Assembly: GCA_965231145.1 (NCBI GenBank)
Contig: OZ246420.1
Coordinates: forward strand, 720,001-752,000
Origin: Candidatus Saccharimonadota bacterium
GTDB lineage: Bacteria > Patescibacteriota > Gracilibacteria > Absconditabacterales > Absconditicoccaceae
Direction of reading: 5' to 3'
DNA length: 32,000 nt
Shown here piece after piece: positions 3,946 through 29,078 of this stretch. Under the pieces are notes generated by a model that was given only the letters and a program-made list of their open reading frames with translations, was not told the origin of the DNA and ran no database searches. How positions within the stretch are numbered: the stretch's first letter is position 1; every line of letters starts with the position of its first letter. The position numbers were made by a program, and so were the translations under genes.

Positions 3946-3967
3946 CGTTTAATTTTTAATAAATAAT

Positions 3968-4741: not shown

Positions 4742-4761
4742 ATTATAGTTTATTTATAAAG

Positions 4762-4795: not shown

Positions 4796-4796
4796 T

Positions 4797-5370: not shown

Positions 5371-5406
5371 GAATAAAATATTGATACTCACAAGAATAAA
5401 ACTATA

Positions 5407-5439
5407 GTTAGTCTGCCTTGCAAGCACGACTAACTTTTT
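5407..5439 (+). terminator. Rho-independent terminator
   Basis: Stem gttagtc/gactaac encloses the palindrome cttgcaag and is followed by ttttt. Confidence 0.5.
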
Positions 5440-5484
5440 AGTCAGCTCAAAATACACACTCAAGCAATTGAGAAATTTTCCTTA

Positions 5485-5576
5485 TACGGTCAAAAAAGGA
5501 GGTATAGCTACCTACCGAAGACCGTAAAAGGAATTTGGGCGCTTGCAAGGCGTAGTGGTTATGCCTCCCTTTTTTA
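5485..5576 (+). promoter_or_regulatory. Structured leader or small RNA ending in a terminator-like stem plus T-run, directly upstream of the 5591 gene
   Basis: Stems tacggtc (5485-5491)/gaccgta (5520-5526) and ggta/tacc. A long-range stem ggaggtata (5498-5506)/tatgcctcc (5560-5568) with one T-G pair is followed by cttttttatt. An A9 tract and the ATG come next. Confidence 0.3.
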
Positions 5577-5590
5577 TTATTCAAAAAAAA

Positions 5591-6874: not shown

Positions 6875-6979
6875 GTAAGATGTTCGATAAATCTATTTTA
6901 GAGTCATATTCAAGTTAAAATACTTGAACATTTTCTCGATTTCAGTATATACCTAGATATTTACGACTAATTACTTCAT

Positions 6980-8815
6980 ATGAAAAAAGAAGTAGTCAAA
7001 AACTATAAGAGGCAATATGTCATTTATTGCAGAAGATCTTCTGATGAGGCGTCAGGACAACAAATACAGTCTATTCCCGATCAGATCAAGAAATGTATAG
7101 AATATGCTAAAAATAATGATCTTGAGATAGCGTTAAAGCCTAAAGATTTTCCTTTTGAAACAGAAGAAGACCTAAAGAAAGAAGATTTAGAACCTGATCT
7201 AGCATCGAGACAACTATACTTAGATACAAGGCATCTATTTATTATCAAAGAAAGTGAGACAGCGAAAATCCCATATAAGAGGACAAAACGAAGGGGGCTA
7301 ATCGTAATGATAGGGAAGGAGAAAAGTGTACAATGATTATTAAGTTATAGCCCTGATAGGCAAGCAAGAAATATGCTGGAAGGAGGAGAACTTATTAATT
7401 TTGTGGATAAAGAAAATAAGGAATTGGACTTTGATCTTAAGTATACGAATTTTCATTTTGAACCTACAGCTTCGGGCAAGATGATGTTAGGCATTTAGTT
7501 TGTTTTCTCAAAACAGTATTCAGATAAGCTTTCGGAAGATATTAATAGAGGAAAAGAAAGTGCAGTACTGAAAGGTAAATCACAAGGAAGATATAAATAC
7601 TGATATACAAGAGATGAAAAAACAGGTAAGTATATACCTTCGGAAAGATATTTTGAATTAATGAAAAGAGCTTTTGAAATGAAGCTATACGAGAACAAAA
7701 GCGATGAATATATAGCTGAATGGCTTAATGAAATGGGATTTAATAGGGAAACGCTTAATACAAGTAAGTCTGTAAATGATAAGGCATTACATAGAGTGCG
7801 GGTTAATCCTTTCTATTACTGAATGTATATTGAAGGAGAAACGATAACAGATCTTCGTAATGATGAAGATTTTAAACCAATGATTACCGAAGAAGAACAT
7901 ACTATCCTTCTTGAGAGGTATAATAAGCTCTTTGAACGTTTAATGCCAAAAGAAATAAAAAAAGAAAATGAAGAGTTAATGCCGTTACCTAGATGATTTG
8001 TAAGAAATGAAAAATGAGATAGCTTTGCTTTTTATGTGGTTACAAAAGCGAGGTTTCTTAAGAAGTTAGAGAAGATACATCAAACAGATCCTAGCGTTAC
8101 TTTAAAGGATATTGTTAGCACTCATCATATAAGATTTAGAGACACTAACAAAGCCTCGAAGACTTATAATATGGAAATAGCATTTGATAGGATAGATAAA
8201 GCTATTATTAAATCACTTAGCCACCTTAAAATAAGCGATAAAGATTATCAAGAATATGTTAATTATAGAATTGAGGAACTAGATAAACTTAATAAGCAAA
8301 TGAAAGAGCAGTACAGCTTTATTCTTTTGCAACTAAATAGAAAAAAGTCTGAAAAAACTGAATATATGAAAAAGATGATGTGAAGAATCAAAAGAGATGA
8401 TGAACAAAAGATATATGAAAACCATCTAGATTTGCTCGATAGTCAGATAGCATGACTTCAACAGACGATGAACGCCGTTAATAATGAAGAAAGGGACAAA
8501 ATGAAGGAATTTGATGCCCTTGTACAAACCATGCAAAATGCAGTTAGGAAGTACTCAAACTCTACATATGTTCAAAAAAGAAAAATGATAGAATTAATGT
8601 TCTCGAACATAGTTGTAGATAAACAAAAAAGGCTTACCTTTGAGGCAAACCCTTGATTAGATGTCGTATTTAATAAGTTTTTAATGTCATCTGGAGATAA
8701 CTCTATTTTGTTAAACTCTTTTATGAGCGACCTCTACCAAAGGAGGTTCATCATTGGTCATATCTGTACTTTGCTACGCAAAAGCGAAAAATGAAGCAAG
8801 TTACTGATACAGTAG
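6980..8815 (+). pseudogene. Large serine recombinase with a single in-frame TAG (7496-7498)
   Basis: Catalytic N-terminus YVIYCRRSSDEASGQ. The frame continues through TGA codons and joins track ORFs 6980..7336, 8036..8383 and 8468..8656. The one TAG falls between ...GKMMLGI and FVFSKQYSDKLSEDINRGKE, inside the conserved resolvase-domain helix. The frame is otherwise open to TAG 8813-8815. Confidence 0.65.
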
Positions 8816-8893
8816 ACTACAAAAGGGATCTAAACAGAAAAGCAGAGTTAAATCTATATATAACGAATAAATCGCTCATAACATTATATCGTT

Positions 8894-9826
8894 ATGACAC
8901 AGACAAAGAATCCACAAGCACAGCTTGTAAGAAGAACATTAGCCAAGCTCGAAAAGAGTCAAAGGAACAAACGAGACTTTATTAGGTATTTAGAAGAGAG
9001 TAAATCCCCTCTTCTTAAACATACCATAAAAACGAATAGATTGAAAGAATGCGGAAACGTAGTAACTTTTCGCAAACACTTAGAGACAGGAGAAAAACAG
9101 CTACGTTCAGCTAACTTCTGTAAGTATGATAGAGTATGTATTGCTTGTGCTACCAAAAGAGCCATTGGTATGATTAAAAGGTTTGAGCAGGGAATAAAGG
9201 CTCAAAGTCTCTATGAGAAACACCGATACTATATTGTGCTGACCATCAAGCATAATGCATGAGATACTCTTGAAGATCTGATGGCGAAGCTATTGTCTTC
9301 TAAAGAGAAACTTGCAAGAAACTATAGAAACTCAAAAAGGGATGTTCAGAAGAGTAAAAGTTTCTTTACTGCTTTTGATGGCATGGTAATTTCTATTGAA
9401 GTAGCTCATAAGGGGAAAAATGGATGGCATCCACATATCAACATACTGGCTTGTAGCAGTAAAGAAATACCTATAAAACAGGGTATGCATTTAAGAGGTG
9501 ACGTCAATGAACAGCTTCAAAACGAATGGCTTCAAATTACCTGAGATAGCTTTATCCACAATATCCGTAAGATCAACGTAAAGAACGACTACTTTACGAG
9601 AAGCGGGATCGGTGAAGTCTTTAAGTATGCCATTAAGTTTTCTGACCTTACTGTATCACAATTAGCTACCATTATGGAGCTTCAGCAGAAATACCAGTAT
9701 CGTTTCTTCTCAACGTATGGGATTTTTAGAGGTTGGAAAGTGGAAAAAGTGGAACAGAAAAAAGGAGAATGGCATGAAGGTAGCTTTATTTATCAAGAAA
9801 GTATTTGATATAATCTAAAAAACTAG
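8894..9826 (+). CDS. Rolling-circle replication initiator, pC194/pUB110 (Rep_1)-type (310 aa)
   Basis: Motifs LKECGNVVTF...ANFCKYDRVCIACATKRA (Cys cluster), GWHPHINILA (HUH) and GEVFKYAIKFSD (catalytic Tyr). Three TGA-Gly join track ORFs 8894..9262 and 9281..9544. TAG at 9824-9826. Confidence 0.8.
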
Positions 9827-9867: not shown

Positions 9868-10659
9868 CTACTTAGCAAGCTTTAATATCCTAAACGAACC
9901 CCTTGCAACTAAAAGGAACACAATAGTTCCTATTATCAGGTCAGGATAAACTGAATGTGTGAAGTATACAATCACACCTGCAAGAATAACGCCAATATTA
10001 GCTATGACGTCATTTGAGGTAAAAATGTAACTCGCTTCCATATGAGCTTCTTTGCTCTTCTTCTTTTGGAGCAGATACAAAGATGCTGCATTTCCTATCA
10101 AAGCGAAAAGCGAAACCAAAATCATAGTTAGATAGTCAGGAGAACCTTCAAATCCTAAAAATCTACGCAAAACCTCAAATAATCCGAAAACAGCTAACGC
10201 AAGTTGAAAGTATCCACTTAGTTTAGCTACTCTCTTTTTCTTTGACATTATGCTCCCTACGACCATAAGGCTCATACCATAGACAATGGCATCTGCTAAC
10301 ATATCAAGCGAATCAGCAACCAATCCCATTGAGTTTGCTATCAAACCTGTGATGATTTCTATAACAAAAAATCCAGCGTTGATGGCAAAAACAATCCATA
10401 GGAGTTTTTTATCACTCATCTGTTCAGCTTCTCCAATGTTTTCAACTTCTTCTGAAGCTATTAGGCTTGAGTTGAAATTAAGCTCAGCGACACTTTGTTC
10501 AATTGCCTTAGTCTGCCCATCGTGGTAAACTATAAGAGTTCTATTGGGTATATCGAACTCAAGCTTTTTGATTTCCTCGTAAGGTTCTAATTTCATCCTA
10601 ATCATCTGCTCTTCCGATGGACAATCCATCTTAGTAACTTTGAATATTTCTTTTTTCAT
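9868..10659 (-). CDS. Cation diffusion facilitator (CDF) metal efflux transporter with an N-terminal HMA-like domain (263 aa)
   Basis: Uninterrupted track ORF. N-terminal FKVTKMDCPSEEQMIRMKL. CDF TM signature ANSMGLVADSLDMLADAIVYG. No TGA codon at all. Stop is TAG. Confidence 0.9.
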   Translation of the reverse strand: MKKEIFKVTKMDCPSEEQMIRMKLEPYEEIKKLEFDIPNRTLIVYHDGQTKAIEQSVAELNFNSSLIASEEVENIGEAEQMSDKKLLWIVFAINAGFFVIEIITGLIANSMGLVADSLDMLADAIVYGMSLMVVGSIMSKKKRVAKLSGYFQLALAVFGLFEVLRRFLGFEGSPDYLTMILVSLFALIGNAASLYLLQKKKSKEAHMEASYIFTSNDVIANIGVILAGVIVYFTHSVYPDLIIGTIVFLLVARGSFRILKLAK

Positions 10660-10705
10660 ATAATGAGTTTTAGGTAAAGTATTTATGTTTCATACTGTAG
10701 TATAT

Positions 10706-11122
10706 CTAATTGAACTGTATCTGAAAGCTATACATTCCCATAGCACACGTTCCATTAACAACATCTCAAGCTTTTTGTTCTGGCAGTTGCACTATATCAG
10801 ATCATTTTGGATCTAAGTTTTTTGAATAGCTCAGCTCAGGTATTCTTACAGCACTTTCACACCCATAAGCATTTCTCCCCTGTATTTTAATTTCTGTAGG
10901 CATTCCCGCCTTAGCAACAGTCATTTTTGGACTATATCCTTGCCCTGCAGTTATGGTGATTTGTTGCTTTCCATTTACCACTACTACATTTGAAGATGGC
11001 GCAGTTGAGACTGTTCAAGCATTGCTTGAAGTATTATCACCTTTGTAAAGTTTCACACCAGTAACTATACCTCCTACTAAGAGAACAGTTACAATGGCAA
11101 TAATAATGTTTGTTTTTGTCAT
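10706..11122 (-). CDS. Membrane-anchored cupredoxin-like small domain protein (138 aa)
   Basis: N-terminal TM IIIAIVTVLLVGGIV, then VVVVNGKQQITITAGQGYSP...YGCESAVRIPEL...GTCAMGMYSFQIQF. This is the type of protein commonly found next to HMA-permease and copA genes. Three TGA-Gly. Confidence 0.7.
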
Positions 11123-11132
11123 TGAAAAGAGA

Positions 11133-12137
11133 TTAAAGACTAAAGAAAGGCTGTATAATACCCAATGCAACAAGACTGCTTGAGAAGTTATAGAGCGCTA
11201 ATACGATCAAGATAATACCGATTGTTTTGAAGAAGAGGTTTGATGATGATGACTTTTGGATGGATTTTCATGTCACACTCAATAGTAAGAGCATAGGCAA
11301 AGTACCTAAAGCAAAGCTTAACATCGTCAACCCTCATGCTAAGAAGCTACCTGTAGAAAGTGTATATACCTGCATTGACTGTGTGAAACCGCATGGAAGA
11401 AAGAATGTTCCAATACCTATCAGAAGAGGTCAAAGAAATGAATTACCTTTTCAAGAAAAACGCTTAAAGATACCTCATCAAAATGCTACTCCCCCTCTTA
11501 CAACTCATAAAAGATTCAGTCATAGAATGAAGAGAACTACTGCTATAACCATATTTAGCACAATACTTACATTCTGCGAAAGTTGAAACGCTGCACCGAT
11601 CATTCATAAAATCCCTCAAAGAATGAAGAATCCTACAAGTCTTCCAATATGAAAGAGTGAATGCGGGCGAAATGAAGAGTTTTGTGAATATACCGTTCAT
11701 AAGGCTAAAACTACTCACCCTACAACTGCAAGGCAGCTTGATACCGATGCTATCAGTCCAATAATAAATGATGTTCCATACGTCCTATTTTCTGCGTTGA
11801 GCATTTGTAGCAATCCAAGTTTTTGAAGCTCTACAAATCCATATATCAAAGCAGCTGCCATGACAAAGGCAAGGATGTATTCTCACCGATTTATTGTTTT
11901 TTCTTGAGGTTCAGTATGTATACTATAACCATGAGGATGAAGCAAAGGATTCATAATAGCAGATAGCTGTTCAGGTGTCACTTCCTCATCACTATGAATT
12001 ACTTCCACAGTTTGACGTCTAAGACTTACTTTCACATGATTCACACCTTCGATTTCGCTTACTGTATCTTGTATCAAAAAGATACATGCCTTACAGTGCA
12101 TTCCTTTCACATGAAGCGTATGTGCTTGTTGATCCAT
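11133..12137 (-). CDS. HMA domain fused to a DsbD_2/TauE-like multi-pass permease (334 aa)
   Basis: Extends track ORF 11883..12137 (HVKGMHCKACI) through about 14 TGA. TM region has SSCLAVVGG and FFLPCGFTQ motifs. I checked the frame triplet by triplet and found no TAA or TAG. Confidence 0.75.
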
Positions 12138-12165
12138 TATGTAAAGTTTTTTACGAATAAAAGTC

Positions 12166-14436
12166 TTACAGTTTTGTATTTTTCAATCTGAGGCTATTTG
12201 CTACCACGCTTACACTACTCATCGCCATTGCAAGTCCTGCAAAAATAGGATTGAGTAGTACAGGATAAAAGAGACCTGCTGCAAGTGGTATTCATACTAT
12301 GTTATAGATAAACGCCCAAAAGAGGTTTTGCTTGATAGTTGCCATTGTTTTTCTAGAAAGCTTAATGGCTTTTACAAGCTTGCTTATATCTCCTGCTAAA
12401 AGTGTAATATCAGCAGTTTCTATAGCTACATCAGTACCTGTACCCATAGCAATTCCTACGTCAGCTAAAGCAAGTGCAGGCGCATCATTTACACCATCTC
12501 AACACATCGCTACGACCGCTCACTCCTCTTTCAGTGAACGAATTACATCTGCTTTTTGATGCGGCAACACTTCTGCTCTTACATCATCTATTCATACGAG
12601 GGAAGCAATATGTTCAGCGGTTTGTTTGTTGTCTCCAGTTAGCATTACTGCTTTTATTCAAAGACGATGAAGCTCAGCGATTGCTTCTTTCGCATTATCT
12701 TTGATAGTATCTGCGATTCCAAATATGGCCATTACCTCTTTATCTGTAGCAAGGAAGATTGGAGTTTTCCCTTGAGACGTAAGAGTAAGAATATCTTTGA
12801 GGTCATACGTTGCTCATATATCATCCATAAGCTTTATATTACCTGCATACCATGTAGCACCAGCTATTACTCACTCAACCCCTTTTCCTTCAATCATCTT
12901 GAACGAAGAAACTTCTTGAAGCTGCATGTTTTCTTTGCTCGCACTGTTCACAATAGCTTCAGCAAGTGGATGCTCAGATTGCTTTTCAAGGCTCGCTAAT
13001 ATTTGTAAGTCATTGGCTCTATAGTTTCCTATATAATCTACCAGTTCAGGTTTCCCTTTTGTGATAGTTCCTGTCTTATCAAAAACAACAGTTGTTACTT
13101 TATGCATTTTTTGCAGGCTTTCTGCATTCTTTATCAGTATACCCTGTTCTGCTCATTTACCCACACCCACAATAATTGCTGTTGGCGTGGCAAGTCATAA
13201 AGCACAAGGACAAGCAATTACTAATATACTTACAAAGGCAACTATACCCGTTACAAAGTTTCCTGTAATAATCCACACTATGAGTGATATTATTGCTAGA
13301 ATCAAGACGATTGGCACAAATATTGAAGAGATCTGGTCAGCAAGTTTTTGAATTGGAGCTCTTGATCCCTGGGCTTCCTGTACCATGTGGATAATATGCG
13401 CCAGCATACTATCTGACCCTAAAGACGCAGCTTTCACCTTGAGAAATCCTTGTTTATTTATTGTCCCTCAAATAACTTTCTCTCATTCTTTTTTCTCTAC
13501 TGGCATAGATTCACCTGTAATCATAGATTCATCTATACTGCTTGATCCACTGGCAATGATACCATCAACGGGAATTTTCGATCATGGCTTGATAAGTATA
13601 ATATCATTTTGTTGTACCTGCTCTATAGATATTTCCATTTCTTTTCCGTCTCTTTCTACGATCGCTGTTTTTGCTTGAAGGTTCAAAAGCTTTTCGATTG
13701 CTTCACCAGTTTTAAGCTTTGATTTCGTCTCAAGATATTTTCCATAGTAGATGAAACCAATAACGACAATAACCACATCATAGTAATGAATGCTCACATC
13801 TAAATAAGGAGCAAGAACCTCTTCAAATGCGCTTACTATAAAGCTATAAATGAATCAGACGAGAGTTCCAAGTCATATCAAGGTTTCCATACTTGCGACA
13901 CCAGTTTTCAAGAATCTCCACAAAGCTATGATGTATTGTTTACCAATAACAAATAATACATACGTGGCCATGAGAGGGAATGTATGATGCCAAAGCTCAT
14001 ATAGCCATTCTGACATTTCAGGAAAAAACCCTTGCTTACCTCATATATCAAGAATCATATATACAAAACTCAAAACCACAAAAGGAATGATGATGTTAAT
14101 GTTTTTTTTCATCCCTTTTATCTCTTCAAGCTTTTCGTCTTTCGTTTGATTCATCCCTAAATGAGCTGCATGTTCATCTGCTGACATTTTAGAATGATCC
14201 ATCTTACTATGATCTACTTTTGGAGCAGAGCCAATAAGCTGATACCCCATAGGCTCAATAGACCTATTCATATCTTCTATACTCACCGTTTCAGGATCAA
14301 AGTTAAGCTTAGCAGTATCAGTAGCAATATTCACTTCACATTCTTCCACTCATGGAAGCTTTTTGAGTGACTTTGTGATATTATGTGCACAGCTGGCACA
14401 GTGCATCCCTTTCACTTTATATGTATCTTGCATCAT
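12166..14436 (-). CDS. copA: Copper-translocating P1B-type ATPase (756 aa)
   Basis: Joins track ORFs 12871..13107, 13195..13437, 13582..13797 and 14041..14349. Motifs are GMHCASCA (HMA), [39 protein letters not shown] and [16 protein letters not shown] checked the whole frame for TAA and TAG. Confidence 0.95.
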
Positions 14437-14460
14437 TCTTTTGCTAGAAAGTAAAATATA

Positions 14461-15600
14461 TTATGGAGTTCACCCTATTCAGTTTGTCCAAATACTTATA
14501 CCATTGGGCATTTTACCTACTGGAATAGTACTCTCAACTTTATTATCTATATTATTTATAACTGTGACCGTATTACTAAGAAGATTTGTAACATATGTTT
14601 TCTCTCCATTTGGAGATATAACTACTCCATGTGGAGCTTCTCATCCTATATACTTTTCTACAACATCAAGACTATTTGCATCAATTTTATAAATACTACT
14701 TCCAACAGGTTCATCAAAATAATATCACTGATCTGCCACATAAATATATGCACTATCTGGCGTAGAATATAGCTGTATTGGTCATACTGATCACTCTGGC
14801 AAACTCACCGTCTTAACTTCTTTACTAGCAATCTCATAACGAGCAATACTTTTAGCATTGTAGAGAGAAGCAAACACGTACTTATTATCTGGCGTTACTG
14901 CCACCTGAATTACTTTTCAATTCAATGGAATGATTTCTGACGTATAAGTCACTGTATCTATCTTCGCTATTCATCTTTCTCCTATAAGTGCAACATAAAG
15001 CGTTGTCCCATTGGCAGATAAACGCAATCAGTGAGGCTGCGCTCAATCAGGCAATACTACTGTTTGTTTTACTTTTTTGGTTGTTAAGTCTACTACATAG
15101 ACCTTTCATTTATCCTGAGACGTAACATATGCTGTACTATCGTCATGACTTATTACTGCATGTGCTAGATGCGCTCACTTATCAAGGCTAACACGTCAGA
15201 TAACAGTATCGGTCAGCGGATCGATGATAACTAACTCATCGTTATTTGTTTCTTCTACCGTATGTCATTCTTTTTCATCTTCCTTTATGTTCGCTGTTAT
15301 AACTACTACTGTTCCTTTGGGTCATACTTGGACATTATGTGCCGAGAACGATAAAAGCTTACCATAGTATTGCTCTGTTAAGCTTATTGTTTTTATCACA
15401 GTATTTTTATCTGCATCGATAACACTTACTGCACTTTCTCATTCATTTGCTATGTATATCTTCTGATTTACTGACATATTAATATCTTGTTTTTTCTCAA
15501 ACGAGAAATTTCTATTCGCTCATTTTATCGTCAACATCAACCATAATAAGAGCCCAAAGGCAAATACACCAATAACTACAACAACTCATTTGTATTTCAT
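14461..15600 (-). CDS. YVTN-family beta-propeller repeat protein with an N-terminal signal anchor (379 aa)
   Basis: The frame is open only under table 25; about 18 of about 31 Gly codons are TGA. Repeats of the type YIANE-G-ESAVSVID, AYVTSQDK-G-KVYVVD and KTYVTNLLSNTVTVI. Confidence 0.8.
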
Positions 15601-15627
15601 ATCTGTATAGCTTAGAAAGTAAAAAAG

Positions 15628-15906
15628 CTATTTTCTCGTGCTTACATCCCGTACTCTTACTAACTCATCTACAAACTCCTCTACTTCAGCTTTGTCTTTT
15701 GAAACCAGCTTAGTCTTACCACAGCACTTCAAATGGTTTTTGAGAAGTTGTCTGTTTGCTTCTTTTAAAAGACCTTGAGCTGCGTTGATTTGGTTCGCAA
15801 TATCAGCACAATAAATATCGTTCTCGATCATCTGTAAGACTTTATCTAATGTGCCTCTAGCCTTCTTAACTCACATTGAGATCTTATCCTTATTACTTCA
15901 AAGCAT
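15628..15906 (-). CDS. csoR: CsoR/RcnR-family metal-sensing repressor (92 aa)
   Basis: Extends track ORF 15628..15831 upstream through 2 TGA to ATG 15904-15906. KKARGTLDKVLQMIENDIYCADIANQINA...NHLKCC gives the C...H...C ligand pattern of the DUF156 family. Confidence 0.85.
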
Positions 15907-15932
15907 GGTTCATAACTTAATGGTAAAACATG

Positions 15933-15947
15933 ACCCTATGGTAGGGT
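15933..15947. promoter_or_regulatory. Candidate CsoR operator (inverted repeat ACCCT-N5-AGGGT)
   Basis: Lies 27 nt upstream of the csoR start. It resembles the G/C-tract inverted repeats bound by CsoR-family repressors. Confidence 0.35.
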
Positions 15948-16045
15948 TATAGCAAAGATACCTATTATTGCAAGGGGAAATAAAAGCTGAGTTGCATCTT
16001 ATCACTAAAAGCGTACATATAAGATATTTACTCATCAAGATCGAC

Positions 16046-17272
16046 ATGAAATATCAGTCATATTATCCATATCCTCTTCAGGTTGATTTTGAAAGTCCGT
16101 TATGGGATTTCATCAAAAAAGATTGAAACGAAAAAATTGTATGAGATCTTATGGTAAAACGGATGCAAAATTGACTACGCTATAAGCGCATGAATAATGG
16201 AAAGATGGAAAGCTTTATATCTGAAACCTTAATGGCTATCAGATATTGATTACCGCCTGAGAAAAAAGATGATTGAATATATGTAAGTGGACTTTATTTA
16301 GTAGTAAGTCGCATTATCGAAGTCCTTATCACAAGAATGAAAGATTGCGGAGTTGATGATTGAGTGTTAGTAAGAATACTTATGTGAGGGATGCTTCACG
16401 AGTATTATACGACTGGTGAATATGGAGAAAAACTCCGAGATATTCTTGATGAAGAATGAGCAAAACAGAAGGCTGCTAAATGAAAATTTGTAAAAACACC
16501 TGTATCACAGTTACGGACTAAGCTTATTCCATTTCATACTGAATACGCATCTCAGAAAAGGAATGAAGCAGAATATAAACTATGAAAATTCCTTACTGGG
16601 ATTCTTAAAGGGAAAATACCTGTAATGACAATGGACATACTGAAAGCAGCGACAACAACTTCCATTATAGAGCCTGAGTTATTAAAATTCGATAAAGAGG
16701 GAATAAAAATAACTAAAGAAGATTTTCCAAACGACCCTGACATAGTCAAAGGATTTCAGCAAACACGTATTTTAAGAAAGTGTGAACTTTACGAAATAAA
16801 TCTGCTCATCTGTATAGTGGCCGCTATATACCAAGAGGAAGAATTATTCCTGTATTTTGACCCTTACCATCTTAGACTATGAATATGCGATAGAAAGAAC
16901 TTAGTCATCAAAAGAGACCATGTAAACCTGATAATGAGCTTTACTAATATACTTCATAGCATCTTCTGTGAGCATTGCATCAAGATAGCATTTGGTAAGT
17001 TTGATATAGATTTCTCTACTCTAACACCTGATGAGACAGCAGATGTACTAAAAAAGATGTTAGATGACCTTTATAGTCAACTTTCAAAAGTGTGTCCTGA
17101 TGATCTCACAGTAACCGTTGAATGAAAGGTAGAAGATATGTGAAAATTTGCTGAAGTAGATGAAGCAATAACTCATTGAAAGGTTGGATTTGATAAGCAT
17201 GATGGTAAGAAAAAATGAATTATTTTTAAGGTAAAAAAGAATTTGAATAGCTACAGGAAAAAGATAAAATAA
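16046..17272 (+). CDS. Hypothetical protein (408 aa), no recognisable domain
   Basis: Joins track ORFs 16625..16882 and 16934..17125 and extends upstream to ATG 16046 through many TGA. I verified the frame triplet by triplet. TAA at 17270-17272. Confidence 0.6.
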
Positions 17273-17541: not shown

Positions 17542-17633
17542 TGACCAAGAACAATAAAGTAAGTTGAACTTGCATTATTACATAATAAGACTATGAATGA
17601 GCTAATTATTTGTATCTTTCGAGAGTTTAACAA

Positions 17634-19358
17634 ATGGCAAGAAAAAGAAATCTTTTACAGTACGATATTGCCAATCAAAGTCCTGTGTTTTCTGCTTGAG
17701 AAAAAGTAATAGATAAAGGCAAGAAGCAGTGAATCATCTATGCAAGAGTTTCTACAGAAGAACAAAAGAAAGATGGAAATGGGATAAATGCTCAAATCAC
17801 TGACTGTAAGAATTGGGCAAAAAGAAACGAAGTTGAGGTAGTAAACATATATACTGATGAAGCTATATCCTGAACAGATCTAACAAGACCATGATTCAAT
17901 ACAGCTATCAAATTCATAGAACAACAGAACAAGAAAGGAAACTTCATTGAGTATTTTATATGTAACTCCACTTCAAGATTTTCAAGATCACCTGAACTAT
18001 GAAAAACTTTTGATATGGTAGGAAGGGTACAGATAGCCTGAGCTAAGTTAGTCTCTGTAGGTAACTGATGAGTAATAGAGACCAATACTGAAGAGTGACT
18101 TATACAATCAACACTGAGCTTCATGAGTGATGCTCTTGAATCTATGAAAGGAAGTAAAAGAGTGAAATATGGTCTTAAAGGAAAAATCTATGAAGGATTG
18201 CGACCATTTTCTCAATGTCCTATGGGATACGAAAGAATAGTAATAGAAAGATGAGGTAGAAACATAAAGAAGCTTATCAGAAAAGAACCTCATGCAACCA
18301 TCCTTGCAGATGGTCTTAAACTCTTTGCTGACTGATCTCTTATGACGAAGCAAGATCTCTTTCTCTATTTTGAGGAACAATGACTAAGATCAAACAGCAA
18401 GAAGAACAAACAAGAAAAGCTTCATAAAAGCGTAGTGTATAATACAATCTTAGATCTATGGAAACTGTATGTGTATGCAGGCTATCTGACGTATCCACCA
18501 CTCTGAATAAATGAGCTTATTCCAGCAGATCATCCTGCGCTTATAGATTTAGATACTCTCAGCAAGATCATGAAGAGGTTGAGCTATGATAAAGAAACAG
18601 TAAACCAAGAAACAAAAAAATACGATATGGATTCTCAAGACTACCCTCTTACAAGAATACTACAATGTGAAGAGTGCTGAAAATGAGTAACCAAGCGAAA
18701 GTCGAAATCTAAGACCTGAGACTATCACCATTACTATGGTTGCAACAACCCTGATTGCACCTTACATAAAAAGTCTATCAAAAGAGACGAAGTACATAAT
18801 GCAGTAAGAGAGAAGCTTACTACTCTTTCTGTTTGAGACAAAATGATAAAGGTCTTAGAGTTAGTTTACAAAGAAGAATTACAACTCATTACCAAAGACA
18901 AGAAGGTAAGAAACAAATCAAAAGAAGAAAGGATTGCAAACCTACAGAAAGAAATGAAAGCCTTAGAAAACATCATGGAAAAAATAACGAACGATCAACT
19001 CTTCCAGAAGAAACAGGAAGAATGGGCAAAACTCAATCAAGAAGTTGAGAATATCCATAAGGAGATAGACGATCAAGACTTCCAAAAAGATGAACAGGAT
19101 AAAGTCTTTAATGAAGCAAAGACTATTTTATGCAATCCTGCCGCTATCCGAGATTTTGGAGATGCTGAATTAAAGCAGTTAGTAATTAGGGTGTGCTTCA
19201 ACAACAAAATTATGTATAAAAAAAATCAAGGGTTGCACACCCCTGAAATATCAGGTATCTATTTAGCTAAAGAGCGATTATCATATTCGTCATTACGTAA
19301 ATCTGGAGACATTGAGTTTATTTCTGAACACCTATGACTTGACTGAGGGTGAATTTAA
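17634..19358 (+). CDS. Large serine recombinase (574 aa)
   Basis: Motifs IIYARVSTEEQ (catalytic Ser), SG-TDLTRP-G-F, Zn ribbon CEEC-G-K...YYGCNNPDC, and coiled coil (track ORF 18843..19337). The frame is continuous from ATG 17634 through about 20 TGA. It reads past TGA 19335-19337 to TAA 19356-19358. Confidence 0.9.
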
Positions 19359-20912: not shown

Positions 20913-23900
20913 CTAATCCCACTTTTTCAAAATAGTTTCTACATCTTCCTTCAGCGTTTCAGCTAACGGAACTTTACTTATCGCCTCTCTAATTGCTGAT
21001 TTAATAATACTCTTTTCAGAAAAAGGAAATTCAATCTTACTGAGAAAGAGGACAAAGAAATCTAGATATTTTGCTAAATTTTTAGAAACATTCACATTGA
21101 TTATAAGAGCAGTAAAAACACTTATAGCTGCTTCGTAATTCTTAAAAAACTTGAATTTAGATATTATTTCTTCATGGGAATATCTCTCTTGATTTAGAAT
21201 ATTAATAATCACATCTACACTATATAGGGTATTTTTATAATTCTCCATTATTAAAAGAGCTAGGCACTCATCGTGCTTTTCCTTAGTTATGATACTATGT
21301 TCAAACAGCAGGGTAATAATTGTATTAATCGAAGTTGATTGAACCTTAAATTCTTGGAGGGCAATCAGAGAAAGGACCTCGTCATCTGCATAAAAATAAG
21401 CTCCAGTTTGTTGAGCATACATCATAACATCTAAGTATTCTACCCCTAGTATTTCTTTTAATCTTTCGTTTTTAACAATAATACTAGATACCATAGGCGA
21501 AAGTTCACAGGCGTTTTCAATAAATTGTTTAATTTCTAATAGCACTTGTTGTTTTTGTTTATATTCTTCTTCTGTATGCTCGTGTTGTGCATATTGTCAT
21601 TCGCCAGTCTTATAAAAGGATATGTGCTTTCATCATAAATGCTTTTCCTCCAAAATATCTCAATTGAGCTTATCAAGCGTTGACTGCAACACTACTTTAG
21701 AAATAGGCAACTTGTTAAAGCACTCTAAAAGTCCCAGTTTATGTAAAGTTATTATAGCAGTAATATCTATGACGACACTTCATATTTTTAATAAATCCTT
21801 TTGTACACCTCATAATACTCTAATTCATCACAATGAAGTAATTGCATAGTAAGCTTCTACTATATTCATATTTCTATTTTCTGCTAGGAAGGACAATGTA
21901 ATTTTACCTTCATTATATAATTTTAATAGCTCCTGTCCTTGTTCATAATTAGCATCTGCAGTGGCATTCATTTGTTCTAGCATATTCTTTATACTGTTTT
22001 CATCATTCTCATCTATAGTAAGCATCTTTACTGCACTCTTATCTCAGAATTTTATTTCTGAACTGCTTAAAACATAATGATACGCATATAAAAACTTACT
22101 TTTAATATTTTTAACCTTTCACTTTCTCGTTCAACTCAAAGCAATCTCATCTCACTCTTTAGCATCTTTAATTAAGCTATATAAGTTATCTGAGGTTTTT
22201 AATATTTCAACTCCGGGTAGTCATACGATATCACTTTGAATAATATAGCGAGCAGTAGAGCCGTTCTCTTCAAGCTCAAAGTAAACCCCCTCAGCTATTG
22301 TGTTCTGATGTAATATGAATGAGAGTTTGCCTTGCTTATCATTGTTTATTACCATCATATAAAGATTATAAGCATCTTGTTCTGAAACATTATCACATAA
22401 GTATTCATAAGCCATTTTTAATGCTTTTTCTCCATATCATAAAGAAATTAAGATTTCAGCGTAGGTTCTTATATTACTTCTATAAATTTTACCATATTCA
22501 TCACTTTCTTGACAATATTTATCTACTTCCTTTAATCTTTTTTCATCTTGTGTTAAATATTTTAAGTGATTTAATCGTAGTAATGAATTAGGGTCATTAG
22601 TCAGTTTTACTAAATTCTCACAGTTTATAATTGCGTTTTTATAATCTCTAATGTTTTGGTAAATCTCAGTTTTCATTATAAGAACATCCTTATCTATGCC
22701 ATATACTTTTATATAATCATCACAAAAAGAAATTAGTTTTGAAGCTTCTATATCATTTCTTTCTCCTGCTTTGATAATATTTTTAAGGGTGTCTAGATTA
22801 TTATTTAATGGAAATAGCTTTTCATAAATCTTATACGCTTCTTTGTTATAATTTAATGTAAGTAACATTTCTCATGTATAATATAATTCCCACAGAGGAA
22901 GGGTATCTATTTGGGAAATTATATTTTTAACAAGTCAATCAACATCTATTTTTATGCCCATTTTCACTATATCTCATTCGCTTATGCAGGCTAGTAATGT
23001 AATTTTATCTTTTATCGATGTAGAGTTAATCATCTCATCTAACATGGATTTTGCCAATGTTTCATATCAAGCGGTCCTCAAATAGAATTCTAAAAGAGTA
23101 TATTTTACTTTATGGGTATCTTCTTCATTTTCGGGATTTAATGCTAACAATATTTTCTCTGCTTTTTCTATATTTCAAATTTGTGCATAGGTTCTAGCTG
23201 CAATTAATGTGGTTTGAACATCTGATAAGTCCTCCTTAATCATGCCTAAAACTTCTTCAGCGGGTTTGCCAGATATTAAAGCCATCCAAATTTGATTAGT
23301 ATGAGTAGTAGTTAATTCCTTTTTGCCAATTCCTCGTTTTTGTCAGCTATTTATTATCAAATCAAATATTTGTAGTGCTTTATCTTTTTCACCTAGAGAA
23401 AAATTGACCAACGCATTATTCATCAATCGATAAATAAATATGGATTTAAATTTAGAACCATAGATATTATCCCATAGTTCAGAATAGACTGATTGTAGCC
23501 ATATTAACTCCTTCTTATCCTCTGCAGTTAGTAAATATGTTCCTTTTTCTATTTTCTTATTTTTCTCAAATTTACTTAATTTAATATCAGCTATTTTACT
23601 AACACAGTATAAAGTCTTTTTAGGGTTCTTTTTCATGATTTCTTCAAAAATACTTATTGCTTTATCTTCTATTCACTGTTGCATTGCTATAAGTCCCAAA
23701 GTCATGTTTATTGCTTCGTTTGATGCTATATGGGTAGGAATATTTTTATATATTTCCTCAAAATTACCTGATTTCCCCTCAATTACTATCTTATAATTAT
23801 ATGCTGGTAATACTTTGGGATTAGATTTTAAAATCTCATCTAAAGAAGTTATTGCTTGTTCATCAGATATTTTTTTATCTAACCATTCAATATAAATCTT

Positions 23901-24674
23901 TACTGTTTGTGAGTATTCTGGTCCGTAATTCACGTCACTCGCTTTTTTAAGCCATTTGACAACCTCTTCTTCGTTATGAATATTTCAAAAGAACCTGACA
24001 TTTAATAAGTAGAATTTGAACCTTACTTCTACATTAGAACCTTCTACTAAAGGTATAAGAGCATCTCTTAATACAGCAAACTCATCTAAACGATACGAAT
24101 ATATTAAGTCGTTTGCTATATTGTCTATAATGTCAATCAGATACTTATCATCTGGCTTTTTAAAACTTTCTTGTATACTTTTTAATATTTTCGTGTGTTC
24201 ATTTAATGTTTCCTCTGTTTTATCTGTAAAATATCTATTTATAATATCTTGCCCATCTGGCAATGAAAATAATCTGTTCCAATCATTGTACCACACCAAC
24301 TCAATGCCTGCCTGTTCAGCATTTTGATGAATAGTATCCTTGAGTGGATTATCTGCCCAAACTAAATGAGAAAATATATAAATTTTAGTTAATTCATATT
24401 CTCCGCTTATTTTTCTATCTATCGCATTTTGAATGGATTTTGCTATTTGCCTATAATGGTCATAACTTACACTTGTTAATGCTTCAAAAAATTTAGCTTG
24501 AAATCATATTCATCTAACTGCTTTAGTTTCAATTCAGGCATAGTTAAAAAAATGTTCTATCGGCTCTACAATATTACATTCTCTACGAAAAACTTCTTCA
24601 CATAATTGTTCAAAAGCAGTTGTAGTATCAGAATGAATAACTTGAAATATCTTCCAATCTATTAAATTAGGCAT
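20913..24674 (-). CDS. Giant TPR/alpha-solenoid protein (1253 aa) with an N-terminal PD-(D/E)xK-like motif and a C-terminal PIN-like region
   Basis: Track ORFs 20913..21545, 21828..22025, 22221..22415, 22437..22868, 23343..23636, 23673..23933 and 23985..24299 all share one frame. I read every intervening triplet and they are linked only by TGA codons. ATG 24672-24674, stop 20913-20915. N-terminus WKIFQVIHSDTTTAFEQLCEEVF...YAGIETKAVRGIGFQAKFF. C-terminus GSVVIDITAIITLHKLGLL...AYFYADDEVL. Confidence 0.7.
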
Positions 24675-24849: not shown

Positions 24850-24868
24850 GCACAAATTCTACATATAT
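24850..24868 (+). repeat. 19-nt motif GCACAAATT-N3-CATATAT, copy 1
   Basis: 16 of 19 positions identical to copy 2 at 25096..25114. Both copies lie in the 700-bp non-coding gap upstream of the giant ORF. Confidence 0.4.
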
Positions 24869-25095
24869 AAATATGCGTTCTCGAGTAAGTGTCCAAAAAC
24901 TAGAAATATCATCAATGAAGAGAAATAAGAGTTGGATAAATACTTTTGATTGCTTTTATAGTTTGCTAAATTAGTGGATTTGGACAAAAAAGTTCTCTAC
25001 GGAAGTATGTGAAAATCATACACTCATTTATAGTCTTAAATCTCAATATATACCTAACTTTTCATCATTTAAAGAAAAAATAAATACTCCGTTTC

Positions 25096-25114
25096 GCACA
25101 AATTTCGCATATAT
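25096..25114 (+). repeat. 19-nt motif GCACAAATT-N3-CATATAT, copy 2
   Basis: See copy 1 at 24850..24868. Confidence 0.4.
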
Positions 25115-25155
25115 TTCCTCTAAAAGTTATATAATATAGATTTGAGTTTGATTTT

Positions 25156-25311
25156 GGCTTACAAAACCTTATTTTCACTGGTGCAACATCATTACATATT
25201 AACCACACAATCCTCTAGTAATAGAGGGACGGTTTGCGATTTTCTCCGCTTACTGTCCTCACGGGCGTGTGGTGTAATGGTGTTGCAACCTGAGAGGTCG
25301 TAAGCCGTCCC
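25156..25311 (+). ncRNA. Candidate structured RNA of unknown class (about 155 nt)
   Basis: The most G+C-rich non-tRNA patch in the island. Nested helices: ggcttac (25156-62)/gtaagcc (25300-06); ggtgcaacatcattac (25180-95) plus accacac (25202-08) pairing with gtgtggt-gtaatggtgttgcaacc (25267-90), with one bulge and one U-G pair that favours the + strand; hairpin cctcta-GTAA-tagagg (25212-27), a GNRA loop. gggacgg (25226-32) is complementary to ccgtccc (25305-11), giving a pseudoknot or an alternative pairing. Confidence 0.4.
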
Positions 25312-25340
25312 ATTATTATTTCTACATTGAGCTTATGACT

Positions 25341-25368
25341 GAAGGATAATCATATACCTTCTTTTTTT
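25341..25368 (+). terminator. Weak terminator-like hairpin plus T-run between the structured RNA and the 25387 gene
   Basis: gaagg-N11-ccttc followed by tttttttatttttt. An A-tract and the ATG come next. Confidence 0.3.
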
Positions 25369-25386
25369 ATTTTTTCAAAAAAAACC

Positions 25387-25854
25387 ATGAAAAAATGGCT
25401 TTATGTAGTGGCGATAATTCTTCTAATCGGCGTACTTTGAGGAACATACTACTATGTTCAACTCGACAATAAATCTTCTAATAATCCGGATATTGAAATG
25501 TGTAAAAATGAAGTGATGAGTGTTTTAAAATCGCCCTCAACGGCAGTTTTTGGAACATTTGATACTACAACTGACAATATTGCATCATACGTAAGATGAG
25601 AAGTAGATAGTCAAAACACATTTTGAGGTGTTTTAAGAATGAAGTTTGTATGCGTAATTAATTGATTTGATGTCAGAATAGTAAGTTCTGAAGGAGATAG
25701 AGATGAAATAAACGAATTAGAAATACTCAATAGCTATATTTTCAATAATACTATACCTACTGGCACAAGAGCAGAAATATATACGCAGTACATGAAAGAT
25801 ATCGCAGAAATAAATCTTAAATATTATGAATGAACTAAGGACTTACTTCCATAA
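25387..25854 (+). CDS. Signal-anchored small protein (155 aa) carrying the PSTA.F...DSQN.FG...R.KF.C domain
   Basis: ATG 25387, TAA 25852-25854. N-terminal TM WLYVVAIILLIGVL. The segment MSVLKSPSTAVFGTF...VDSQNTFGGVLRMKFVCV is homologous to the C-terminus of the 5591..6874 product. Confidence 0.7.
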
Positions 25855-25946: not shown

Positions 25947-26138
25947 ATGAAAGCCATTCAACCTATAACGGTTGAACTCGCTAGGGATATGGTGTGACAT
26001 TTAGTCAGTGAAAATTGTGAAGATACGGAGTTACTCGAGTTCATTAATAATTGTAAAAGGATAGCAAATATCTTGATTGATTATGCTGAAGAAAATATTT
26101 TAAAAGATTTACCATCTTACGAAGAAAAAGATGAGTAA
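25947..26138 (+). CDS. Small acidic protein (63 aa) whose stop overlaps the recombinase 3 start
   Basis: ATG 25947, TAA 26136-26138, overlapping ATG 26131 of the recombinase. Related to the 17360..17527 product. Confidence 0.5.
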
Positions 26139-27750
26139 AAAAGCAGTAGTATATACAAGAATATCTTCAACCACTCAAGAGAGTTGAGGTTGATTAGGTA
26201 GCCAAGAAACGTCTTGCAGACAATATTGCGAAAGAAAAGGTTATGAAGTAATAGAGGTTTTCCAAGATGTATTCTCATGAGGAGAACTTAACAGACCTTG
26301 AATAAAGGCTATGTTCAATTTTATTGATGACTATAATCGCAAAAATACGGAAAAAATTAGTGTGTTTGTTACTCATAGTATTAATAGAATAGCTAGAGAT
26401 TATAAGGTACATCTTGAGCTTACTACAGAATTATTAATGAGAAAAGTAAACTATGAAACTGTAGATATGACCTTCGAGCGTACTCCCATGGGTAAATACA
26501 TGGAATGAATGATGGCGTTGAATGCTGAATTCTTTAGAACAGAAAATAAAGAAAGAGTTATCTCTAGACAGGAAGCTAGATTATTAGATGGTTATCGACC
26601 ATTTGACCATCCTACCGGATATAGAACTACCTATGCTCTCGGTGGATGAAAATTACTTATTGCAGATGAACCTAATGCTTCAATTATTAAAGAAGCCCTT
26701 GAAGGATATGCAAATGATATATTTAATAGTATAGATGAGGTAGCTAAATTTTTACAGCAAAAGGGCTTAAATTTATATAGAATTAGAAACAAGAAAAGAG
26801 AATGAAAATATAATTATGTTCATAAATCATTGGCATGAAGAATGCTAAAGCAAATTTTATATACCGGTTATATCGCATATAATAAGGTTACTTTCGATAA
26901 AAACTGATTAATAAAGAAAGAATGGAACATTCCATTGAGGAAAGGTAGGCATGAGTGAATTATCGACTTATCGACATATTATAAAATTCAGGAAAAACTA
27001 AATGGAAAAAGACCTTATGAAAAGGAAACTAAAGCTATAAACGAGAATTTCCCTTTAAGGTGATATATTGAGTGTGATTGTTGTAATCTAAAATTTAGTT
27101 CGGGCTTATCAAGAAGCAAAAATAGAAAACAAGTCCCTTATTATCAATACAATAAAGGATGTATACATAAGGGGAAATCTATTAATGCAAATAAATTGCA
27201 CACAGACTTTGATAACCTAATTCAAGATAGTCAAATAAATGATGAATTTCTTAATTTTATGAAACTAGTAATAGCATCCGAATATGAACAAAGGAAAATA
27301 GACAAAAAACAAAATAAACAGAGTTTTGAAAAAGAGGTAAAATCTATAGATAATCAGGTGAATAATTTAGTTAATAGTCTTGCTTCTTCATCTTCTAATC
27401 TCGCAAGAACAAGAATTGAGCAAAAAATAGACGAGTTAGAAATGAGAAAGGTTAATATTAATGAGCAAATGAGTGAGGATAATAGTGAAGAATTAAGTAG
27501 CAAAGTAATAGAAATAGCGTGCTCTATTATAGAAGACCCATATTATATATGGAAAGATGGCAATATATCACAAAAACAATCTCTATTAAATATATTGTTC
27601 AGAAAAAAAATCCCAGTCAATAAAATGACCGGAACTTTCTGAACACTACCTTTTAGTAGTTTCTACCTGTTTTCTAGCAATATTTCAAAAGATAAGTTTC
27701 AACATTTGGAGGTGACGAGACTCGAACTCGTGTCTAAAAGTCATGCATAG
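26131..27750 (+). CDS. Large serine recombinase (539 aa) whose 3' end overlaps the tmRNA gene antisense
   Basis: Motifs VVYTRISSTTQES (catalytic Ser), FS-G-GELNRP-G-I, Zn ribbon CDCCN...YYQYNKGC, and coiled coil (track ORF 27196..27642). Under table 25 the TGA at 27640-27642 is Gly. The frame then runs on as ...TLPFSSFYLFSSNISKDKFQHLEVTRLELVSKSHA to TAG 27748-27750. Confidence 0.85.
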
Positions 27751-28056
27751 ATCCTTACTACCATCATAGTCTGTGAATTTCTCCCGGAGGCTATCTGAGC
27801 CCGCGACAGGCATCGATACTTTAATATATGTTTTAAGCCCACATAATCGGCTGGTTTTCCTGCTCATCACTCGGGCCTAGCAGGAGTCAGGGGCCGAGTT
27901 TAGGCTTTAACTACGCAGCATATGCGTAATTGAAAGCTGACAATCTCATGTTAGAGTTTGCATGTTTTGGTGAACGATTATTTTATCCTCGGTACGTTCG
28001 TCGAGCGATGGCTAGATATACACATGGGGTACTTCTATCAATACCAGCACACCCCC
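27707..28056 (-). ncRNA. ssrA: tmRNA (transfer-messenger RNA)
   Basis: 5' GGGGGTGTGCTGGTATTGATAG pairs with 3' CACCTCC-A, giving a G3-U70 Ala identity pair. T-arm is ACGAG-TTCGAGT-CTCGT. Internal tag frame GCA AAC TCT AAC ATG AGA TTG TCA GCT TTC AAT TAC GCA TAT GCT GCG TAG (27961..27911). CCA is not encoded. Confidence 0.9.
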
Positions 28057-28117: not shown

Positions 28118-28447
28118 CTAAGCCATAGCAAGCTGTTTTACTCTTTTGGGAATAGCAGCCAATTTTTTGCTTTCTTCTTTATCTAAGCTTAGCTGGTAGA
28201 CATCATACATATTTTGTAATCCTATCCATACTTGTGCGGAAGTGCCAAATGCGGCTCACACACGGGAAGCAATCCTTGGGGTAACGTTTCTACGTTCCTT
28301 GAGGATATTATTTAATTCTGACTTATCAATTCCCAAAATGTCAGCAAATTGTTTCTGTGATCGTCCTCTTGCTGCAATTTCTTCACGTATGTATTCACCT
28401 GGGTGAAAAGCCATAGGCACTCTGCTATTACGCATGATAATAATCAT
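28118..28447 (-). CDS. higA: HigA-type antitoxin (XRE-family HTH)
   Basis: Extends track ORF 28256..28447 through one TGA: ...AFHPGEYIREEIAARGRSQKQFADILGIDKSELNNILKERRNVTPRIASRV-G-AAFGTSAQVWIGLQNMYDVYQ...; TAG at 28118-28120. Confidence 0.85.
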
Positions 28448-28461
28448 TAATGATAAAAACT

Positions 28462-28764
28462 TTATTGATAGTGATTATTAATCTCTATTATTCATACAAC
28501 CTGTATCTCTTTGATTTGATTAACTGTGAATATTAATCTTCGAGCCTTATTTAGTCTGACACTTTGCTGACCATCACGATCACCATTAAGCTTTTCACAA
28601 TGCAGGCCACCGATAGCATATGCATCTCTTATATCAGATGCCTTTATAAAAAAGTTTATCCATTTGATATAACTTCTGATAATGTCAGGATGAAATCTTT
28701 TAGACTTTCATTCCCGATATAGTTCCTCTAGCTTAGGATCATGAAAAATCACCTGCATGGGCAT
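28462..28764 (-). CDS. higB: HigB/RelE-type toxin (plasmid maintenance system killer, 100 aa)
   Basis: ATG 28762-28764, TAA 28462-28464, 2 TGA-Gly. MPMQVIFHDPKLEELY...GGLHCEKLNGDRDGQQSVRLNKARRLIF fits the HigB pattern. It lies immediately upstream of higA. Confidence 0.8.
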
Positions 28765-28813
28765 TTTTTTATTTGTAAAATAATATTTTTGTTTTTGCAC
28801 TTATCAAATGAAG

Positions 28814-28993: not shown

Positions 28994-29078
28994 TGGTACC
29001 GGAGAAGGGACTCGAACCCTCACATCTTGCGACATACGCACCTGAAGCGTACGTGTCTACCAATTCCACCACCCCGGC
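28994..29078 (-). tRNA. tRNA-Leu (anticodon CAG), class II with a long variable arm, CCA encoded
   Basis: The reverse complement GCCGGGGTGGTGGAATTGGTAGACACGTACGCTTCAGGTGCGTATGTCGCAAGATGTGAGGGTTCGAGTCCCTTCTCCGGTACCA closely parallels E. coli tRNA-Leu(CAG). Anticodon loop is TT-CAG-GT. Confidence 0.95.

Follow-up and report, generated by a model that had tools for sequence, protein, structure and literature searches.

Structured regulatory RNAs are almost unexplored in Patescibacteria and their mobile elements, and a 700-bp spacer beside a giant putative defence gene raises the question of what kind of RNA it may encode and which of the neighbouring genes such an RNA would serve. The spacer lies in the stretch of 32,000 nt analysed here (hereafter the window; GC content 33%), in which TGA is read as glycine. 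As the invariant glycine positions of CopA carry TGA (MC[TGA]DGVNDAPAL, CPCAL[TGA]LATP), the host is a code-25 bacterium, and the closest named relatives of the window proteins are found in 'Candidatus Absconditabacterales'. ORF lists made with translation table 11 break up every gene of the window, for example 12166-14460 (-), where TGA stands for Gly, and the protein database entries for these code-25 genes show W at TGA.

Fold and classification of the spacer RNA

The initial annotation had described by eye a nested, highly base-paired RNA candidate in this spacer, with more than 35 potential pairs and with the + strand favoured. The predicted minimum-energy fold is the same nested rod. The closing stem forms between GGCTTAC (25156-62) and GTAAGCC (25300-06), the long interrupted helix consists of 25182-95/25274-87 together with ACCACAC (25202-08) and GTGTGGT (25267-73), and the internal hairpin is present at 25212-27 (Table 1). 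The pair number holds as a minimum, the rod itself containing about 49 pairs.

On the + strand, the 236-nt segment has a minimum free energy of -77.0 kcal/mol against -47.5 +/- 4.2 kcal/mol for shuffled sequences (z = -7.08, 0/200), and the 166-nt core alone reaches -67.4 kcal/mol (z = -7.05). The preference for the + strand was borne out, the opposite strand of the 236-nt segment giving z = -4.89, and at least 15 G.U cells of the alignment described below would become A.C mismatches on the other strand. Across 796 windows of 160 nt taken from both strands, this element (hereafter type 1) had the lowest energy, below that of the tmRNA, and together with a second element at 5391-5550 (type 2, described below) it gave the two strongest z-score outliers. 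The GC content over 25150-25349 is 0.39-0.50, compared with 0.20-0.30 in the flanks. Modelling and sequence comparison confirm type 1 as a real, strongly folded RNA-type structure of the + strand with conserved helices.

That the element belongs to no known RNA class was upheld by the searches. At the gathering threshold, Rfam 15 returned only tmRNA and tRNA for the whole window, and at E<=10 only sub-threshold matches of microRNA or snoRNA type (<=22 bits) were obtained over 24900-25500. The five loci L003, L004, L007, L008 and L009 likewise gave tmRNA and tRNA only, and the type-2 element gave nothing. ARAGORN called only the tmRNA and a tRNA-Leu in the window, with no tRNA at the RNA element, and TRF detected no tandem array, its only call being an 11-nt, 2.4-copy repeat in the promoter-like region. 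Type III toxin-antitoxin RNAs carry tandem direct repeats of about 34-36 nt; this class was rejected on the absence of such repeats in the TRF output. Retron msr/msd, IS110 bridge RNA and IscB/TnpB omega RNA were also rejected, there being neither an adjacent partner enzyme nor an Rfam match. Among the subset of window ORFs scanned with Pfam, the domains found were PIN-TPR-GreABC, serine recombinases, Rep_1, HigBA, AAA_21 and others, and none was a retron, bridge or omega partner enzyme. Full-text literature searches yielded no description of such RNAs in Absconditabacteria.

Homologues, covariation and the type-2 sister family

Homologues were reached through 18 close relatives of the neighbouring recombinase and the contigs that encode them. 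One of these, L003, is a 936-kb contig of the MAG GCA_030429145.1 with a recombinase 61% identical, and it carries a type-1 RNA at 8628-8865 (nhmmer E = 6e-44). The block of promoter, RNA and terminator is 82% identical between the two (window 25080-25382, L003 8568-8870). The homology ends at the downstream gene, which L003 replaces with a different membrane-protein gene, and resumes at 25858 with xis, int, tmRNA and HigBA at 70%. By part, the identity amounts to 87% in the RNA core, 79% in the tmRNA, 70% in int and 65% in xis. Three blocks (26, 48 and 27 nt) show no difference at all, and the changes concentrate in P2 and hairpin 1. Those in P2 (A-U>G-C, A-U>C-G, U.G>C-G, C-G>U.G) leave 0 broken pairs, with wobbles on the + strand only, and an independent MAFFT/RNAalifold fold of the 2 sequences counted 2 double and 3 wobble changes, again with 0 broken pairs.

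A search with a covariance model built from the window and L003 sequences added a divergent sequence, L016 1341-1526, as the third member, with 28.4 bits and an E-value of 6e-4 over 62 kb. Over the three type-1 sequences 96.6% of cells are paired and 17 pairs show double changes, counts that are biased by the model-aligned row of L016; when the partners were slid by 1-3 columns as a control, pairing went down to 37-47%. The initial annotation had proposed homologues and covariation as a check, and in both L003 and L016 the helices are preserved by changes that are compensatory or retain G.U pairs. Elsewhere, no type-1 RNA was present in five loci with 42-55% identical recombinases or in the loci of recombinases P0003, P0005, P0006, P0008, P0013, P0014, P0015 and P0016. 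Searches with blastn against phage and plasmid collections gave chance matches of 23-37 nt only, exact and degenerate pattern scans of viral collections gave nothing or one chance match in a coding region (L012), the pattern scan of genome_contigs returned L003's own contig only, and the metagenome pattern scans gave 0 matches. So far, type 1 has been seen in three distinct loci and type 2 in four, all of code-25 Patescibacteria.

Comparison of the homologues also allowed the parts of the element to be graded by conservation. In the promoter-like region, the -10-like hexamer reads TATAAT in the window and TATAGT in L003, followed by TATAGATTT, and CTAAAAGTTrTATArTATAGATTT is conserved in the alignment of the two. 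Its function as a promoter stays putative, since a consensus promoter scan makes no call at 25080-25140. The two copies of the direct repeat change together, both reading TTTCGCA in the window and both TTTCTTA in L003 (about 8580-8600), and they look like an operator for a DNA-binding protein. A second copy of GCACAAATTnnnCATATAT occurs 246 nt upstream of the promoter repeats (24850-24868).

Within the rod, hairpin 2 and its junction lie inside the 48-nt stretch identical between the window and L003, and CGGTTTGC...GCTTAC is retained in L016. As hairpin 1 is shrunk in L003 to CCUU/AAGG, a 4-bp hairpin with a large loop of 9 nt, the GNRA tetraloop noted in the initial annotation is not a conserved feature of the element. 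The alternative pairing it had proposed between GGGACGG and CCGTCCC (X:X') fared better: the complementarity is exact in the window and is kept in 3/3 type-1 sequences (AAGGCGG/TCGTCTT in L016), although the pair count (95% paired, 2 double and 2 wobble changes) is not significant with 3 sequences. X' and P1 have 2 nt in common, so that X:X' and the rod are alternatives to each other. Segment C is without sequence variation between the window and L003 and is missing in L016. The weak terminator that had been suggested is present as GAAGG...CCTTC followed by T7, and its stem and U-run are kept in L003 with a different loop; a simple terminator scan misses it because the loop exceeds 8 nt. Its 3' strand TATACCTTC-T7 aligns with the type-2 tail TATGCCTCC-T6. 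Two further candidate features were rejected, namely the outer helix 25143-52/25326-35 of the window MFE fold, which is not kept in L003, and a small ORF through the rod (~50 codons, open in the window and L003), which shows mostly non-synonymous changes and is closed in L016.

Type 2 was found by looking for GC-rich spacers in other islands. In the alignment of its 4 sequences (A4), 94.8% of cells are paired with 21 covarying pairs (double changes), a level that 0/500 shuffles reach. The topology is common to both types: a long closing stem is followed by an A/U-rich 5' internal loop and a short helix (ACCACAA/UUGUGGU in the second type-2 copy of L004, L004b, and ACCACAC/GUGUGGU in type 1 of the window), and the three-way junction bears two hairpins, of which the 5' one is small and the 3' one larger. 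A 3' tail able to pair with part of the 3' hairpin completes the scheme; in type 2 the two strands (GGAGGUAUAGCC with GGCUAUGCCUCC) match over 12 bp, and the U-run comes directly after. Pairing in this 12-bp X:X' is complete (100%), one pair has undergone a C-G<->G-C swap, and the only departures from Watson-Crick pairing are G.U pairs on the strand of the gene. The type-2 closing stem, of 14-17 bp and with near-palindromic arms in some copies, shares sequence with the local terminator hairpin, and the conserved tail forms its 3' strand. As neither covariance model detects the other type, the two are separate families or very distant relatives at most, and any relationship would rest on topology, common short motifs and common downstream genes. 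The window holds one copy of each type and L004 holds two of type 2.

Table 1. Features of the spacer RNA, its surroundings and the type-2 elements. Coordinates refer to the window unless another locus is named.
Feature	Coordinates	Strand	Remarks
Promoter-like region	25080-25140	+	TATAAT (-10-like) at 25130-35, then TATAGATTT
Direct repeats TTTCGCA x2, 11-nt spacing	25092-98, 25103-09		TRF: period 11, 25092-25117, 2.4 copies
Rod core	25156-25306	+	MFE fold; consensus fold with L003
P1	25156-62/25300-06	+	
P1b	25166-70/25294-98	+	
P2	25182-95/25274-87	+	double changes in 9/14 pairs, 100% paired (3 sequences)
Internal loop ATATTA	5' side of rod	+	
P3	25202-08/25267-73	+	double changes in 4/7 pairs, 100% paired (3 sequences)
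Variable hairpin 1, CCTCTA-GTAA-TAGAGG	25212-25227	+	at three-way junction
Hairpin 2 (GGACGGTT-TGCG-loop-CGC-TTACTGTCC) and junction strand CACGGGC	25226-25266	+	most conserved block
Segment X, GGGACGG	25226-32	+	5' strand of hairpin 2
3' tail X', CCGTCCC	25305-25311	+	complementary to X
Segment C (GCTTATGACT)	25331-25340	+	can pair GGTCGTAAGC (25296-305) instead of P1
Weak intrinsic terminator, GAAGG(ATA)...(TAT)ACCTTC + T7	25342-25368	+	predicted folds
A-run	25377-84	+	before downstream gene
Downstream gene, 155 aa	ATG 25387, to 25854	+	code-25 translation; N-terminal transmembrane helix, phrog_13160-type domain
PIN-TPR-GreABC domain gene, 1253 aa	20913-24674	-	Pfam; neighbour of RNA spacer
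Small Xis-like ORF	between 155-aa membrane-protein gene and recombinase	+	
Large serine recombinase	26131-27750	+	
tmRNA gene	about 27706-28056	-	ARAGORN, Rfam
tRNA-Leu	28994-29078		ARAGORN
Type 2	5405-5576	+	CM R2 124.9 bits; fold z = -6.49; directly upstream of gene 5590-6874
Type 2	L004 7889-8052	+	
Type 2	L004 14142-14322	+	
Type 2	L007 4243-4066	-	

Downstream genes and the role of the RNA

The genes upstream of the type-1 copies differ. The tie to the giant defence gene that the initial annotation had drawn did not survive, as the RNA follows the PIN-TPR gene in the window only, the gene before the L003 copy encoding a KAP NTPase and that beside the L016 copy being P4-cII-like; the tempting link between the RNA and PIN-TPR defence was removed as unsupported. 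From these unrelated upstream neighbours, and from the related recombinases whose loci are without the RNA, it follows that the RNA belongs with the downstream envelope-protein gene. By sequence comparison, its conserved partner is this membrane-protein gene and neither the defence gene nor the recombinase. The P4-cII-like neighbour is a Phage_P4_cII family protein encoded divergently at L016 274-1188 (-).

The 155-aa downstream protein matches phrog_13160 of PHROGs (E = 3.6e-10) and has a C-terminal domain in common with the window protein 5590-6874 (E = 1.5e-8). It had no match in Pfam, PADLOC or PDB and only families of unknown function in PHROGs, and when the stop-to-stop frame that extends from the RNA into the membrane protein was used as a protein query, the window's own protein was the only match. 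All seven elements (3 type 1, 4 type 2) lie on the same strand as the next gene. After each come a U-run, an A-run and, 12-45 nt on, a start codon, and by inspection of the sequences all seven products have a signal or transmembrane segment at the N-terminus. Five of the seven genes form one mosaic family. L016_1547, behind a type-1 element, matches the window protein 5590-6874, behind a type-2 element, with E = 2e-63, and L003_8873 and L007_3964 share other modules of the family; such an element stands upstream of 5/5 mosaic-family homologues in the loci examined. The start codon at 25387 lies 19 nt past the T7 run and 12 nt past the whole T-rich stretch, and the distance from the U-run is too short for a separate promoter.

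Leader and sRNA had both been offered for this element at the outset. Both readings stand, and the comparative context now favours the leader. On sequence and modelled structure, type 1 is best read as a new RNA family absent from Rfam 15 that would work most like terminator-type leaders. The role that we consider most likely, while holding to it tentatively, is that of a cis-acting 5' leader or attenuator of the gene at 25387. A conserved structure with covariation and a recurrent same-strand position before related genes, as looked for in a leader, were both found. From its own conserved promoter, a transcript covering 25141-25375 (+) would be made, with the ~165-nt rod and a ~60-nt tail as 5' leader, and the fold of this leader would set the read-through of the weak intrinsic terminator, which amounts to conditional transcription termination. 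In addition, the U-run may mask the A-rich translation start region. The rod would compete with alternative pairings of its 3' strand and the tail (X:X', B:C) beside the U-tract hairpin, and because of this competition the number of transcripts continuing into the gene would depend on what stabilises or opens the rod, for which a protein, RNase III or a small ligand might be candidates. Transcription, the switch and its effector are here what we infer.

The U-tract hairpin is present in all 7 elements. For GGUCGUAAGC in the window and L003 there are two alternative partners, the 5' GGCUUAC of P1 and the 3' GCUUAUGACU, and folds constrained to one or the other differ little in energy (window, -77.0 vs -73.8 kcal/mol; L003, -79.3 vs -80.6 kcal/mol). 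The B:C pairing was rejected as an antiterminator, the terminator forming in both constrained folds of the window and L003. In L016, the segments pair alternately as 1:2, 2:3 and 3:4, with GGCGACU/AGUCGUC directly before the U-run, and as modelled this layout is that of a classical 1:2/2:3/3:4 attenuator. The layout of the tail varies between window/L003, L016 and type 2. As the terminator forms in both folds of the window and L003 and the layouts of L016 and type 2 differ, a switch between alternative folds is only plausible.

Like terminator-type leaders, type 1 has a promoter (putative here), a structured 5' domain, what may be mutually exclusive helices beside a U-tract and a gene directly after, and the type-1/2 motif recurs upstream of related genes. 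Unlike them, it matches no known aptamer or leader family, would have an unusually long rod as its sensor domain, is carried on mobile islands of a code-25 candidate phylum and shares one gene family with a second structural type. The processive antitermination RNAs HK022 put and EAR are also cis-acting structured RNAs of mobile elements placed between promoter and terminators; they differ from type 1 in size and fold and show no similarity to it. Together, types 1 and 2 are best explained, as far as their sequences indicate, as leaders that form a small group and are carried on mobile islands of code-25 (Absconditabacterales-type) bacteria. They represent two unrecorded RNA families with good covariation, interchangeable before one island-borne envelope-protein family, and are concrete targets for metatranscriptomics and structure probing.

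A more doubtful reading, though one that has to be weighed, is that of an independent stable sRNA that stops at the U-run hairpin, measures about 200-230 nt and acts in trans, with the downstream gene expressed by mere leaky read-through. It might be an island immunity or regulatory RNA like phage P4 CI, or the RNA partner of an island protein. The conserved promoter-like region and conserved terminator of the element would suit such an RNA, and its identical blocks of 48, 27 and 26 nt exceed the usual need of a simple attenuator. In P4 immunity, the leader of a small integrative element encodes the CI RNA, with the segments seqA, seqB and seqC and with termination close by. The complementarity of GGUCGUAAGC to two other segments of the same putative transcript resembles this seqA/seqB/seqC logic, and the P4-cII-like gene adjoins the L016 copy; unlike P4 immunity, type 1 shows no sequence or Rfam similarity to it, is accompanied by a serine and not a tyrosine integrase, and lacks the B:C pairing in L016. 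Against action in trans, no complementary target of at least 10 nt is common to the window and L003 loci. Position in 7/7 cases directly before exported-protein genes, with two RNA types before homologous genes, fits action in cis better, and the occurrence of the same type-1 RNA before proteins without a common domain argues against a specific RNA-protein partnership. ToxIN-like type III toxin-antitoxin systems share the order of promoter, RNA, leaky terminator and protein gene; they differ in that the type-1 RNA is without a repeat array and the downstream genes encode membrane proteins of varying architecture, none with a Pfam or PADLOC match, and not ToxN/AbiQ-like endoribonucleases.

Going beyond the leader reading, we regard it as unlikely that a new class of regulatory RNA, restricted to the mobile elements of code-25 Patescibacteria and with the rod as its sensor, gates island envelope proteins. 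Such a class might be riboswitch-like, protein- or RNA-sensing, or a P4 CI-like immunity RNA acting in trans, the envelope proteins would be candidate superinfection-exclusion factors, and types 1 and 2 would represent alternative answers to one task. Should the RNAs respond to a signal, they would reveal how the display of surface or exclusion proteins is timed by these reduced epibionts or by their islands.

It appears improbable that the leader does no sensing at all and that its double-stranded rod is an RNase III processing site or a 5' mRNA stabiliser, roles for which phage T7 and lambda transcripts offer precedents. The long near-perfect helices (P2 of 14 bp and P3 of 7 bp; 14-17 bp in the type-2 closing stem), the mobile-element context and the conserved 5' UTR position are in keeping with it, but it leaves unexplained both the 48 invariant nt in hairpin 2 and junction and the conserved complementarity of the tail beside the U-run.

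A DNA-level element acting as a single strand or cruciform, whether a single-strand or RNA-primed origin, an oriT or a recombinase or repressor site, is very unlikely. The type-1 segment folds significantly with DNA parameters too (z = -5.3), the arms of some type-2 stems are near-palindromic, a Rep_1 rolling-circle gene lies at 8882-9826 of the window, which also holds three serine recombinases, and RNA-based origins exist in prophages (PMC7157519) and serve as a precedent. However, the many G.U pairs occur on the gene's strand only and are preserved by the changes between homologues, and the elements keep a fixed position and orientation before genes. Two or more copies per island region (window, L004) are unsuited to an origin or att site, the Rep_1 gene is 15 kb off, and the small island of L003 is without Rep_1.

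An island-encoded, 6S-like RNA polymerase-binding rod is scarcely credible: the long closing stem, open junction (12-18 nt and 7 nt), apical hairpin and length of about 160 nt with an interrupted middle recall 6S RNA, but Rfam 6S models (RF00013-type) give no match even at E<=10, the 'bubble' is partly hairpin and variable and not a conserved open one, and type 1 is gene-linked, with several copies of the two types per region.

Further features of the island region

The protein encoded at 20913-24674 combines TPR repeats with the PIN domain known from the PIN-TPR-GreABC conflict system (E = 1e-13). Searching for homologues of this 1253-aa protein returned no relatives, its K/E/I-rich composition being suspected of swamping the word-based candidate list.

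The last 44 nt of the serine recombinase ORF (27706-27750) overlap the 3' end of the tmRNA on the opposite strand, and the C-terminal peptides of its relatives P0004, P0007, P0012, P0013 and P0016 (for example ...MTGFEPVS...) resemble antisense tRNA/tmRNA T-arms. The target sites of these islands are probably the 3' ends of tRNA and tmRNA genes. Large serine recombinase genes occur three times in the window (6971-9826 region, 17631-19358 and 26131-27750). A stop at 7498 interrupts the first of them, the Rep_1 rolling-circle gene comes next, and the pair of recombinase and Rep_1 is also present in L004 and L017. The three recombinases and the Rep_1 pairing suggest a tandem array of islands adjoining the tmRNA.

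Besides, a HigB-like toxin and an HTH_3 antitoxin are encoded at 28118-28800 (-) between the tmRNA and tRNA-Leu, in synteny with L003. At 441-4741 (+), an AAA_21/AAA_15 ATPase, a Cys-rich protein called HNH-like by eye and without a Pfam match, and DUF6978 and DUF1828/DUF1829 proteins are clustered, and this cluster is probably a further defence cassette. Upstream of the type-2 element, a GC-rich spacer at 4800-4960 (+) shows a moderate fold (4751-4910: -41.8 kcal/mol, z about -4.7). Between the mobile modules, genes for cation efflux, a CopA P-type ATPase, a YncE-like propeller and a CsoR-like repressor make up a metal-resistance region at 9868-16062 (-).
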